32,350 nucleotides of DNA from Lachnospiraceae bacterium (lineage in GTDB: Bacteria > Bacillota > Clostridia > Lachnospirales > Lachnospiraceae). Shown here piece by piece: positions 24,479-27,019 of this stretch. The stretch is from NCBI GenBank assembly GCA_017463035.1, contig JAFTPY010000287.1:1-32350 (forward strand). The letters run 5' to 3'. The translations under genes and the position numbers were made by a program. Under the pieces are notes generated by a model. That model was not told where the DNA came from and searched no databases. It saw nothing but the letters and a program-made list of their open reading frames with translations. The first letter of the stretch is position 1, and each line of letters starts with the position of its first letter.

Positions 24479-25552
24479 ATGGAGACTGAAATCATTAAAA
24501 TAAACAGAGACAATTTTGAGGAAGAGGAGCTTGACTTCGCCGCACAGTGCCTGCGGGAAGGAAAGCTGGTAGCATTTCCTACGGAGACAGTGTACGGACT
24601 TGGCGGAAATGCATTTGATGCCACGGCTTCGGCGCGGATTTATGAGGCAAAGGGGCGTCCTTCGGACAATCCTTTGATTGTGCATATTGCGGACAGGTCA
24701 GCGCTTACGGAGCTGGCGGCAGAGGTGCCGACAGCAGCGTATCGTTTGGCGGAGGCTTTTTGGCCGGGACCTCTTACCATGATTTTGAAAAAGAGTGATA
24801 AGGTGCCGAAAACGACTACGGGCGGTCTTGATACGGTGGCAATTCGTATGCCGGCGGACCCGGTGGCAGCGGCACTCATCCGACGTTCCGGTATTTATGT
24901 GGCGGCACCCAGCGCCAATGCATCGGGACGACCGAGCACCACAAAGGCAGAGCACGTCATTGAGGATTTGGACGGAAAAATCGATGTGATTATCGACGGC
25001 GGAGCGTCTGCCATCGGTCTGGAGTCAACCATTGTGGATTTGACGGGAGAGGTACCGCTTATCCTACGCCCGGGCTACATCAATGCGGAACAGTTGGCTG
25101 AGGTATTGGGGGAGGTGCGGTTTGACGAAGCGGTATTAAAGAGGAGCGCTTCAGAGAATATTGTGGCAAAGGCACCGGGGATGAAGTACCGGCATTATGC
25201 GCCGAAGGCGCCGTTGTATATTGTAGAGGGAAAGAGCGACGAAGTGGTTCGTTATATCAATACGGAGGCAGTGAAGAATGCAACGGAAGGACGTCTTACC
25301 GGCATTCTGGCCACAGAGGAAACGAAGAAGTGCTACACGGGCGGTATGGTGTTTTGCGTGGGAGAACGTGCCAATGCAGAGTCCATCGCGGCAGGGCTGT
25401 TTGATACGTTACGCAGCTTTGATGAAACCGGTGTAGGCGTGATTTATTCGGAAAGCTTTGCGGATAACCCGTTGGGGACAGCGATTATGAATCGCCTGCT
25501 TAAGGCGGCGGGATACCATATCATCCGACTTAATCAGGATGAGCATATTTAA
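24479..25552 (+). CDS. L-threonylcarbamoyladenylate synthase (Sua5/YwlC/TsaC type with a C-terminal Sua5 domain)
   Basis: Motifs are VAFPTETVYGLGGNA, RIYEAKGRPSDNPLIVH and SANASGRPS. The start is uncertain between 24437 and 24479; I chose METEIIKI. Confidence 0.9.
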   Translation: METEIIKINRDNFEEEELDFAAQCLREGKLVAFPTETVYGLGGNAFDATASARIYEAKGRPSDNPLIVHIADRSALTELAAEVPTAAYRLAEAFWPGPLTMILKKSDKVPKTTTGGLDTVAIRMPADPVAAALIRRSGIYVAAPSANASGRPSTTKAEHVIEDLDGKIDVIIDGGASAIGLESTIVDLTGEVPLILRPGYINAEQLAEVLGEVRFDEAVLKRSASENIVAKAPGMKYRHYAPKAPLYIVEGKSDEVVRYINTEAVKNATEGRLTGILATEETKKCYTGGMVFCVGERANAESIAAGLFDTLRSFDETGVGVIYSESFADNPLGTAIMNRLLKAAGYHIIRLNQDEHI

Positions 25553-25582
25553 AACAAAATGAATTCCAAGGAGGAAACAAAC

Positions 25583-26011
25583 ATGATAGCGTTAGGTTGC
25601 GATCAGGGCGGTTATGAATTGATGCAGGAGGTAAAGAAGCACTTAGTGGAAAGAGGACTGGAATATAAGGATTTCGGCACCTATTCTTCCGAGTCCGTGG
25701 ATTACCCGATTTACGGTAAGAAGGTGGCTCATGCGGTAGCAAGCGGCGAGTGTGAGAGAGGCATTTTGATTTGCGGAACCGGTATCGGCATCTCCATTAC
25801 CGCAAATAAGGTGAAGGGGATTCGTGCGGCTCTTTGCCATGATGTATTCAGCGCAGAGGCAACAAGACTTCACAATGATGCAAACATCCTTGCCATGGGC
25901 GGCAGAATCGTAGGACCTGGCTTGGCACTGATGATTGTTGATAAGTTTTTGGACACCCCGTTCTCTAACGAAGAGCGTCATGCAAGACGTATCGGCATGA
26001 TGGAGGACTAA
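25583..26011 (+). CDS. rpiB: Ribose-5-phosphate isomerase B (RpiB/LacAB family)
   Basis: The ATG at 25583 (MIALGCDQGGYELM) follows a CCAAGGAGGAAAC SD. The motif GILICGTGIGISITANK is present. Confidence 0.9.
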   Translation: MIALGCDQGGYELMQEVKKHLVERGLEYKDFGTYSSESVDYPIYGKKVAHAVASGECERGILICGTGIGISITANKVKGIRAALCHDVFSAEATRLHNDANILAMGGRIVGPGLALMIVDKFLDTPFSNEERHARRIGMMED

Positions 26012-26019
26012 ACTTAGGT

Positions 26020-26324
26020 GCAGACCTTGCCTTCTGATTTTTGTGATATCCGCGAAATTCGGTTTAATGGAATGGTTTTCTCTCGTGTTTCGGATGTGAG
26101 GCTTTCTAATTACTCCGGGAAAGCGTTTGACAGAGTGACGCAACCGGTCTTATGCGACATCCATGTCTTATGGCGACCTCGTCCAAACTTCCTGTTTGGC
26201 CGTTGCTACTTGTGAACGGAGTAATAAGAAAGTCTAGACATCCTGCACAAAGTTCGAAAGTCATGCCATTAAACCGAATTTCGCTGAAGACAAAAGGTGA
26301 AGAAGGCAAAGGTCTGCTTTTTTT
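26020..26324 (+). repeat. Roughly 300-nt long imperfect inverted repeat that folds as a rod and ends in a T7 run; candidate structured ncRNA, MITE-like palindrome or oversized rpiB terminator
   Basis: Outer stem: 26020-26035 pairs with 26301-26317 (16 bp, 1 bulge), then TTTTTTT at 26318-26324. Second stem: 26052-26074 pairs with 26262-26284 (23 bp, 1 mismatch). Third stem: 26092-26117 pairs with 26217-26243 (imperfect). Core helices: 26140-26149 with 26198-26206, and a hairpin at 26183-26199. Confidence 0.8.
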
Positions 26325-26333
26325 GTAAAGTTG

Positions 26334-26362
26334 TTGACACATAGTATTGTATTTGTTACAAT
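26334..26362 (+). promoter_or_regulatory. Near-consensus sigma-A promoter for hicAB
   Basis: TTGACA (26334-26339), a 17-nt spacer, then TACAAT (26357-26362). The element lies 20 nt upstream of the hicA GTG. Confidence 0.6.
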
Positions 26363-26382
26363 AGAGGTATATAGGGGGATAA

Positions 26383-26580
26383 GTGAAGAGTTTCTCATCG
26401 AGGGAAGTAATTAAGATGCTAAAGGATGACGGATGGTATGAGGTGAATGTGGAAAGGAGCCATCACCAGTTTAAGCATCCGACAAAGAGGGGACGTACAA
26501 CCATAAAACATCCGGATAAGGATATTCCGCGAAAGACACTTGATAGTATAGAACGGCAATCAGGACTCAGATTCAGATAG
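26383..26580 (+). CDS. hicA: Type II toxin HicA (mRNA interferase family)
   Basis: 65 aa. The motif REVIKMLKDDGWYEVNVERSHHQFKHPTKRGRTTIKHPDKDIPRKTL is typical of the HicA/YcfA family. GTG start with a GGGGGA SD. Confidence 0.85.
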   Translation: MKSFSSREVIKMLKDDGWYEVNVERSHHQFKHPTKRGRTTIKHPDKDIPRKTLDSIERQSGLRFR

Positions 26581-26602
26581 CCGGATATGGAGGAGGATTA
26601 CT

Positions 26603-27019
26603 ATGAAAATGACAGAACGTTATTGTTTTCCGGCGGTGTTTTCCTATGAAGAGGGGCAGGAGATTTCTGTGTTTTTTCCTGATTTGGATGTGGCGACCAG
26701 TGGGGTGAATGATGATGATGCGTTGCTATCCGCCAGAGAGTTATTGGGATGCGTGTTGTTTGGGTTAGAGGAGGATGAAGAAGAAATCCCGGTACCGACA
26801 CCGTTAACAGATGTACAGGTAGAAGAAAATGAACGCTCGGTTTTGATTGATGTATATATGCCGTCCGTTCGTATGGCACGTGTGAATCGTTCGGTAAATC
26901 GGACGGTTACATTGCCTGCCTGGCTTAATGCGGCAGCGTTAGAGCGTAATGTGAATTTTTCGCAGGTGCTGCAGGATGCGTTAAAGGATTTACTCGGAAT
27001 TGGAATTGTACGGAATTGA
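26603..27019 (+). CDS. hicB: Type II antitoxin HicB with a C-terminal ribbon-helix-helix-like DNA-binding tail
   Basis: A HicB-like N-terminal fold (YCFPAVFSYEEGQEISVFFPDLDVATSG) and a C-terminal RTVTLPAWLNAAALERNVNFSQVLQDALKDLL. A GGAGGAGG SD is present. The gene starts 22 nt after hicA. Confidence 0.8.
   Translation: MKMTERYCFPAVFSYEEGQEISVFFPDLDVATSGVNDDDALLSARELLGCVLFGLEEDEEEIPVPTPLTDVQVEENERSVLIDVYMPSVRMARVNRSVNRTVTLPAWLNAAALERNVNFSQVLQDALKDLLGIGIVRN

Follow-up and report, generated by a model that had tools for sequence, protein, structure and literature searches.

A TwoAYGGAY palindrome between rpiB and hicAB in a Lachnospiraceae contig is probably one copy of a dispersed fold-back repeat

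Introduction

TwoAYGGAY RNA (Rfam family RF01731) was found by comparative genomics in 2010 and was rated "probably RNA, not cis-regulatory", with a P1 closing stem that is "often very large" (Weinberg et al. 2010, PMC2864571). In 2014, the authors of RMfam reported that both of its hairpins match their CsrA-site model and proposed that the GGA loops bind CsrA (PMC4333381). A CsrA sponge has been the sole functional proposal since 2010, and a 2025 preprint calls the family a "relatively unexplored motif". The published accounts consulted treat it as a probable RNA; dispersed-repeat behavior, presence or absence between strains and copy-specific arms are not part of them. Here we describe a copy at positions 26020-26324 of a 32,350-nucleotide stretch (the window) of Lachnospiraceae bacterium (assembly GCA_017463035.1, contig JAFTPY010000287.1), where it forms a rod-like palindrome between rpiB and hicAB. 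We conclude that this rod is probably a copy of a dispersed, non-autonomous palindromic fold-back DNA repeat that is mobile, and not a stand-alone small RNA (sRNA). We favor this reading because of the many copies per genome, the filled and empty alleles at three loci, the inverted duplication of terminators, the drifting but complementary arms, and wobble pairs that lie on the strand of the neighboring genes.

Several described systems resemble TwoAYGGAY in part. The ERIC/IRU repeats of enterobacteria are also imperfect palindromes that occur in transcribed intergenic regions, in either orientation and in many copies; they too have internal indel variants, lack a transposase of their own and form hairpins in the mRNA of their neighbors. 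ERIC is about 127 bp long and its conserved part is the palindrome arms. In TwoAYGGAY, by contrast, the center is conserved and the arms are copy-specific, the unit measures 233-435 nt, and there is no sequence similarity to ERIC/IRU. Miniature inverted-repeat transposable elements (MITEs) such as Correia, RUP and Nezha share with it a small, non-coding, multi-copy, intergenic, insertion-polymorphic and self-complementary nature, and form hairpins when transcribed. MITEs are defined by conserved terminal inverted repeats that match a parent insertion sequence and by short direct target-site duplications. Neither hallmark was found for TwoAYGGAY, in which the host hairpin is duplicated in inverted orientation instead. 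IS1397 and ISKpn1 (in REP loops) and the class C group II introns (after terminators) have a similar preference for terminator or palindromic sites just downstream of genes. These elements carry genes for a transposase or reverse transcriptase of their own. They leave no inverted duplicate of the target hairpin, whereas filled TwoAYGGAY sites do show one. The sponge sRNAs CsrB and RsmZ carry GGA in hairpin loops as TwoAYGGAY does, RF01731 is placed in clan CL00106 by cmscan, and CsrA binding has been proposed for it by RMfam. Unlike these sRNAs, TwoAYGGAY has only two sites, lacks a promoter and terminator of its own, and is scattered over genomes in many copies of either orientation; its CsrA binding is putative.

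Results

Structure and Rfam identity of the rod

The original prediction, made from the letters of the window, described an unclassified rod-like palindrome of about 300 nt that starts 9 nt after the rpiB stop codon and ends in U7. A long, imperfect palindrome forming a rod of this length was confirmed at 26020-26324. The plus strand of 26010-26335 has a minimum free energy (MFE) of -135.7 kcal/mol, compared to -83.1 ± 5.0 kcal/mol for dinucleotide shuffles (z = -10.5), and 0 of 100 shuffles folded as well. The minus strand of the rod reaches -120.4 kcal/mol (z = -9.5), and the plus strand is thus better by 15 kcal/mol. An inverted-repeat search found one pair of arms at 26027-26080 and 26256-26309 (54 nt, 76% complementary) and another at 26099-26117 and 26217-26235 (19 nt, 89% complementary). 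As predicted, the rod starts 9 nt downstream of the rpiB stop codon (26009-26011), and its 16-bp closing helix, formed by GCAGACCTTGCCTTC (26020-26034) and GAAGGCAAAGGTCTGC (26302-26317), is followed directly by T7 (26318-26324).

The rod is not unclassified, however. A scan of the 32-kb window with all Rfam families gave one match, RF01731 TwoAYGGAY RNA, scoring 93.2 bits (gathering score 43) and lying on the strand opposite to the one that the prediction had assumed. The core of the rod belongs to this known family, whose host range (Clostridiales, gamma-proteobacteria and gut metagenomes) fits a contig of a ruminant-gut Lachnospiraceae metagenome-assembled genome (MAG). The parts of the rod are as follows.

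26020-26036, plus strand: 5' strand of the outer (host) hairpin; pairs with 26301-26317, and the helix is also present in the core-less contig L252
26037-26074, unstranded: left copy-specific inner arm, complementary to 26263-26300, without similarity to the other fetched copies
26074-26261, unstranded: part conserved between copies (stems and central domain); blastn aligns query positions ~65-252, and the multiple alignment agrees
26075-26117, unstranded: left conserved stem (TTTTCTCTCGTGTTTCGGATGTGAGGCTTTCTAATTACTCCG), conserved across paralogues
26085-26250, minus strand: full-length RF01731 match (cmscan, 93.2 bits, gathering score 43, E = 2.9e-15, model positions 1-168 of 168)
26118-26216, minus strand: asymmetric central domain with the two family hairpins, from the cmscan alignment
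26217-26262, unstranded: right conserved stem, pairs with 26075-26117
26263-26300, unstranded: right copy-specific inner arm, complementary to 26037-26074
26301-26324, plus strand: 3' strand of the outer hairpin with T7 (26318-26324), likely the intrinsic terminator of sua5-rpiB

On the minus strand, the two hairpin loops read AUGGAU (plus-strand ATCCAT, 26159-26164) and CAGGAA (plus-strand TTCCTG, 26189-26194). The former, which is the second loop of the family, fits AYGGAY; the latter, the first loop, retains GGA and departs from the pattern, and in most other copies it is ACAGGAGGU. The junction motifs UAGCAAC and CGGUUGCGUCA are present and the P1 closing stem is paired. The window copy agrees with RF01731 in its two GGA-loop hairpins, its AGCAAC and CGGUUGCGUCA junctions, its long P1 and its Clostridiales host. 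It differs in the CAGGAA loop, in a rod that is ~65 nt longer per side than the 168-nt model, and in having the model strand antisense to the surrounding operon. The direct repeat noted earlier in the core (GTCTTATGCGAC at 26147-26158 and GTCTTATGGCGAC at 26165-26177) is present, and its two units correspond to the opposite strands of the second family hairpin, whose loop is ATCCAT. Taken as annotation, the window copy is ordinary and is explained by the Rfam family.

Two mirror open reading frames (ORFs), 26018-26215 on the plus strand and 26106-26342 on the minus strand, both encode EIRFNGM because the sequence is palindromic, and the earlier view that they are artefacts was upheld. A small ORF in the core was also considered and rejected: the window reads ATG GAT GTC GCA TAA, and the covariation pattern is structural.

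Copies in other genomes

The 32-kb window contains one TwoAYGGAY element, and an 18-mer from the heart of the arm is confined there to the two arms. Other copies were sought in one genome per species with the exact pattern CATGGATG N8-16 CGGTTGCGTCA, which covers the second loop and the junction, and the sample is ascertained by this fixed second loop. At least 113 loci were found; true family members occur at ~79 of the loci listed, nearly all in Lachnospiraceae MAGs. MAG RGIG8970 has at least 10 loci and Lachnospira RGIG8763 at least 11, several of the latter with two copies, and at least 2 copies lie in the sister genome GCA_054273375.1. Rfam confirmed 21 copies at 92-131 bits among 16 sampled loci. 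The family is thus a multi-copy dispersed repeat, and the suggestion of a novel discrete RNA is not supported. The 2010 seed alignment already held several copies from one Psychromonas genome. A blastn search of plasmid and phage collections gave no element, and two exact-pattern scans of viral contigs gave chance matches only, none confirmed by Rfam or nhmmer.

All copies are intergenic. Relative to their two neighbors, 25 copies are (-,-), 14 are (+,+), 14 lie between convergent genes and 7 between divergent genes. Recurrent neighbors are ordinary and include HTH-TPR regulators, ABC transporters, a histidine kinase, spoVAD and rplL. Among the fetched loci, a constant ~118 nt separates the conserved stems, which in no case flank an ORF, and no autonomous relative was found.

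In Lachnospira RGIG8763, inverted pairs of elements (first minus, second plus) lie 200-400 nt apart at L052, L087, L089, L091 and L129. Their spacers are AT-rich and unconserved, the pairs are mostly between tandem genes, and the two members carry differing subfamily-specific arms of 30 nt.

Filled and empty sites

For the rpiB locus, contigs whose RpiB is 97-99% identical to that of the window were collected by protein search and contig look-up. They fall into these classes.

L235, L237, L239, L241-L246: empty allele, rubrerythrin gene 20-59 nt after rpiB
L238, L240: filled and window-like, rod and hicAB
L247-L251: filled with different inner arms, rod and hicAB
L252: hairpin only, an 84-nt hairpin with U6 and then hicAB, without the TwoAYGGAY core
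L236 (1930-2130): center deleted, rod arms kept and the central two-hairpin domain lost

In addition, DUF402 directly follows rpiB in L253-L258 (RpiB 94% identical), and in L001 (3430-3480), from the species of the window, the rod, hicA and the 5' part of hicB are lost, apparently between two short T-rich repeats. From these allele classes, a block of ~1.07 kb is strain-variable and the rod is its left edge.

26012 to ~27085 (right end approximate), plus strand: strain-variable block with the rod, hicA, hicB and the rubrerythrin promoter region, missing in empty alleles

In a metagenome scan, 80 loci with more distant rpiB relatives (at most 84% identity) had no element; deep synteny is lacking, and none of these loci supplied an exact empty site.

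Three side observations concern this locus. The block also brings a promoter-like region and the hairpin GGCAAGAGTAAATGCTTGCC upstream of the rubrerythrin gene. Between L238 and window positions 24953-27019, the element is 99-100% identical and sua5, rpiB and hicA are only 93-95% identical, a contrast that suggests that the rod/hicB region has recently been recombined or transferred between lineages. L010 (1832-2195) matches the window exactly in rpiB and in the left half of the element but has diverged in the right arm and hicA promoter, which implies a recombination breakpoint inside the element.

Filled and empty alleles were also found in close relatives at two other loci. In L235, one bidirectional terminator hairpin, GGGGCTGTCGCA-TAGTGAG-TGCGACAGCCCC, lies between the rubrerythrin gene and DUF402. 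In L237, which has the same RpiB protein as L235, this hairpin is followed by a TwoAYGGAY element and then by the reverse complement of the hairpin, with the loop and an asymmetry of the stem mirrored as well. Downstream of rplL, the empty contigs L221-L224 (RplL 98% identical) have a native terminator 18 nt after the stop codon, and the filled contigs L211, L213, L214, L217 and L218 keep this terminator and have an inverted copy of it beyond the element. The copy includes native sequence that precedes the terminator, such that GCGAAATCAG reappears as CTGATTTCGC. Genome GCA_054273375.1 is filled at the rplL and rubrerythrin-DUF402 loci and empty at rpiB.

These comparisons show that elements are gained or lost on short time scales, and that the outer rod consists of host flank and an inverted duplicate of this flank. 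The idea that the GGGGCTGTCGCA-type terminator is itself a high-copy target repeat found no support, as there are just 16 matches in the 1.4 Mb of fetched DNA.

The original prediction had offered a MITE-like element marking the edge of the hicAB insertion as one of three explanations, and it came nearest to what we found. Genomes carry many scattered copies (two MAGs have at least 10 loci each), the insertions are polymorphic at three loci, and the hicAB block is strain-variable. The comparison fails in other respects: the ends are variable and the center is conserved, and neither conserved terminal inverted repeats, nor a direct target-site duplication, nor a related transposase element was found at the fetched loci.

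Downstream of rplL in L211-L220, where rpoB does not follow, contigs with identical RplL have at least six different genes next to the rod (hicAB, a BrxR-like gene, an acetyltransferase gene, an HTH gene and others). The site may be a hotspot for small cassettes. This variety, with the joint absence of rod and hicAB at rpiB, the occurrence of hicAB after a rod at two unrelated loci and the lack of strand bias relative to the Rfam strand, would fit a structure-specific recombination site, folded as single-stranded DNA or a cruciform and resembling attC, that receives cassettes such as hicAB. We consider such a site very unlikely: in L252 hicAB is present and the core is missing, ordinary conserved genes surround most copies, no recombinase is linked, and no second site was seen at the far end of the cassettes. 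Protein identity between the two hicAB pairs is just 31-36%, and the notion that the hicAB cassettes at the two rod loci are one mobile unit was rejected on this ground.

A conserved center and copy-specific arms

Rod ends were defined by arm-to-arm alignment, as MFE folds of 490-nt windows were too noisy, and rod length ranges from 233 to 435 nt across the family. The conserved part is ~190 nt long (nhmmer core match in the window, 26073-26265) and comprises the asymmetric two-hairpin domain, flanked on either side by ~40 bp of conserved stem. Sequence outside it is unrelated between most copies, and 39 of the 63 left arms are unique. The arms of each copy are nonetheless complementary to each other: the 70-nt flanks of one copy pair at a mean of -55 kcal/mol, vs. 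-21 ± 7 kcal/mol for flanks taken from different copies.

A subfamily of 8 copies, at unrelated loci in at least 4 genomes, has a common unit of ~470 nt that includes the arms. In this subfamily 95.5% of cells are paired, and pairs in which both sides have changed number 23, whereas shuffles gave 7.6 ± 1.9 and slid controls no more than 9. Arms can thus travel with the element, and their complementarity is actively kept. When the window copy is compared with the orthologous copies in L247 and L236, identity is 95-98% in the conserved stems, 87-93% in rpiB and only 55-63% in the inner arms (55-58% in the left one), with differences mirrored in the opposite arm.

Three copies with differing arms (L037:3140-3440, L050:5320-5640 and L054:6180-6490) have in common an extra segment of ~110 nt just after the first GGA hairpin. 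It contains a terminator-like hairpin, AAAAGCGGAC...GTCCGCTTTT, and is either a nested insertion or an optional domain.

Strand, transcription and termination

On the Rfam strand, the core has 2022 Watson-Crick pairs and 38 G-U vs. 40 A-C pairs, which is no wobble bias, and the arms have 76 G-U vs. 96 A-C pairs, which is no G-U excess. A bias appears when copies are grouped by their neighbors. In 24 copies antisense to both neighbors, the wobbles favor the strand of the neighbors by 77 vs. 29, and this strand folds better by a mean of 5.4 kcal/mol. In 14 co-oriented copies, the corresponding values are 32 vs. 18 and 6.3 kcal/mol. The strand energy differences of the two groups are distinct (Mann-Whitney p = 0.0009). 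The window copy fits this pattern, as it is antisense to the Rfam model and folds better on its plus strand, by 15 kcal/mol. The pattern is most simply read as transcription of the rods with their neighbors, with some constraint at the RNA level, or a mutational skew linked to transcription or replication, acting in that sense. The bias toward the strand of the flanking genes suggests passive co-transcription.

These data bear on the RMfam hypothesis, by which TwoAYGGAY would be a trans-acting sRNA, here made from the minus strand, whose two GGA loops titrate CsrA in the manner of CsrB and RsmZ while the long stem merely stabilizes it. The SELEX (systematic evolution of ligands by exponential enrichment) consensus of CsrA is RUACARGGAUGU, presented in a hairpin loop. 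The minus-strand loops of the window read A-C-A-U-GGA-U-G-U and C-A-GGA-A-G-U, the GGA loops are conserved in Clostridia and in Psychromonas (ACAUGGAUGU twice), and conservation of the asymmetric central domain far exceeds that of the arms. The CsrA-site model of RMfam matches both hairpins (PMC4333381). On the other hand, a sigma-70 consensus scan of 25500-26800 gave no promoter-like site on the minus strand, every neighboring gene from 20 kb to 28.9 kb is on the plus strand, and in 63 copies scanned for the sigma-70 consensus no promoter recurred at a set position. Of 60 copies, 25 have the Rfam strand antisense to both neighbors. One hairpin is missing in L212 and L219, and the entire center is missing in L236. 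Since the wobbles follow the strand of the neighbors rather than the GGA strand, they argue against any function for which all copies would have to supply the GGA strand. No csrA gene was present in the 1.4 Mb of fetched DNA, a result that is uninformative on the presence of csrA in the genome. The data gathered here give the CsrA sponge no support and we regard it as quite unlikely, though the conserved center needs some explanation.

The genes around the rod, all on the plus strand, are in the order GH18, amidase, sua5/tsaC, rpiB, rod, hicA, hicB, rubrerythrin and MFS transporter. The sole promoter-like site on either strand of 25500-26800 lies 10 nt beyond the end of the rod.

26334-26362, plus strand: hicA promoter, TTGACA-17-TACAAT, 11 of 12 consensus positions

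The outer 16-bp helix with U7, only 9 nt after the rpiB stop, has features of an intrinsic terminator, and L252 folds as a hairpin with U6 at the same place. The closing helix encloses 266 nt, longer than a compact hairpin, and a simple terminator scan made no call. The outer helix and U7 probably end the sua5-rpiB transcript, and hicAB is probably transcribed from its own promoter. Because the outer helix and U-run also occur in the core-less L252, U7 is a property of the host hairpin. In line with the original prediction, the closing helix and U7 look like the end of the rpiB transcript. The U7 is not a feature of the family: a U-run follows the rod on the gene-sense strand in just 4 of 24 and 4 of 14 copies. 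Rods as family-wide terminators were rejected on these counts.

The same counts weigh on a second alternative, that the rod is a cis-acting RNA selected by the host, a hairpin in the 3' untranslated region or between cistrons that serves termination, blocks exonucleases or insulates operons, and that has been duplicated for its usefulness without being mobile. The position of the window copy is in keeping with this idea, as it lies between the rpiB stop and the hicA promoter and ends in U7, and other copies often directly follow stop codons as well, e.g. those of rplL and the rubrerythrin gene. Enrichment of wobbles on the strand transcribed by the flanking genes and the pairing of arms kept through changes on both sides also agree with it. 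However, besides the scarcity of U-runs, the empty alleles already have a compact and good terminator to which the element adds nothing obvious, closely related strains live without the rod, and a hairpin needed for stability alone would not require a conserved asymmetric center of ~190 nt. We therefore judge a host-selected cis-acting RNA to be unlikely.

Discussion

The comparisons point away from a classical sRNA and toward a mobile palindromic repeat that remodels gene ends. Each element has three layers: an asymmetric center of ~100 nt with two GGA-loop hairpins, conserved stems of ~40 bp, and copy-specific complementary arms. Copies occupy intergenic regions, commonly just behind a stop codon and at or within the hairpin of an intrinsic terminator, and are gained or lost between closely related strains. 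At filled sites the host terminator hairpin is repeated, inverted, beyond the element; because the flanking host hairpin is duplicated in this way, the palindrome reaches into copy-specific sequence. In our proposal, copies would be transcribed passively with the neighboring genes in whichever orientation they lie, and might spread by template switching, by fold-back copying or by an enzyme acting in trans. In the window, the element lies antisense to the Rfam model inside the host hairpin, whose outer helix and U7 probably end the sua5-rpiB transcript, with the hicAB promoter 10 nt further on.

More speculatively, TwoAYGGAY "RNAs" as a whole might be a distinct type of bacterial mobile element and not sRNA genes: a fold-back palindrome that copies itself next to or into terminator hairpins, inverts the adjacent host sequence and so grows its own arms, either by template switching during replication or through a structure-specific enzyme that recognizes the two-hairpin center. 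We offer this wider statement tentatively and hold it to be doubtful as it stands.

Several points weigh against mobility. Every presence/absence comparison can be read as an insertion or as a deletion, and L236 proves that central deletions occur. The true ends have no conserved terminal inverted repeats, conservation being confined to the center, and there is no direct target-site duplication at the subfamily boundaries or in the three filled/empty comparisons. No transposase is among the recurrent neighbors at the fetched loci. Conservation of the asymmetric center, with its two GGA loops, is strong from Clostridia through to gamma-proteobacteria; a purely selfish palindrome has no obvious need of such a center, which may be a protein-binding site or have an RNA function. 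The wobble bias could stem from a mutational strand skew and not from selection on RNA. Finally, the data are mostly MAG contigs, with gene orientation from simple ORF calls.

If the mobile-repeat reading is correct, the Rfam label "Cis-reg / RNA" needs a caveat, and the inverted duplication of flanks is a mechanism worth study. These elements would also be a source of strain variation and of assembly breaks in gut Lachnospiraceae. As a separate observation, the short-read assemblies L008, L009, L013, L014 and L015, from the species of the window, break within the element. Such breaks are expected for a palindrome or repeat and may lead to an under-count of the elements in MAGs.

A second short dispersed palindromic repeat, roughly CGCGACCGAGCGACTTTGTCGCGAGGTGTGG, adjoins several TwoAYGGAY copies. 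It was seen in L215, L216, L219 and L220, ~60-130 nt after rplL, and in the flanks of L020, L044 and L085.

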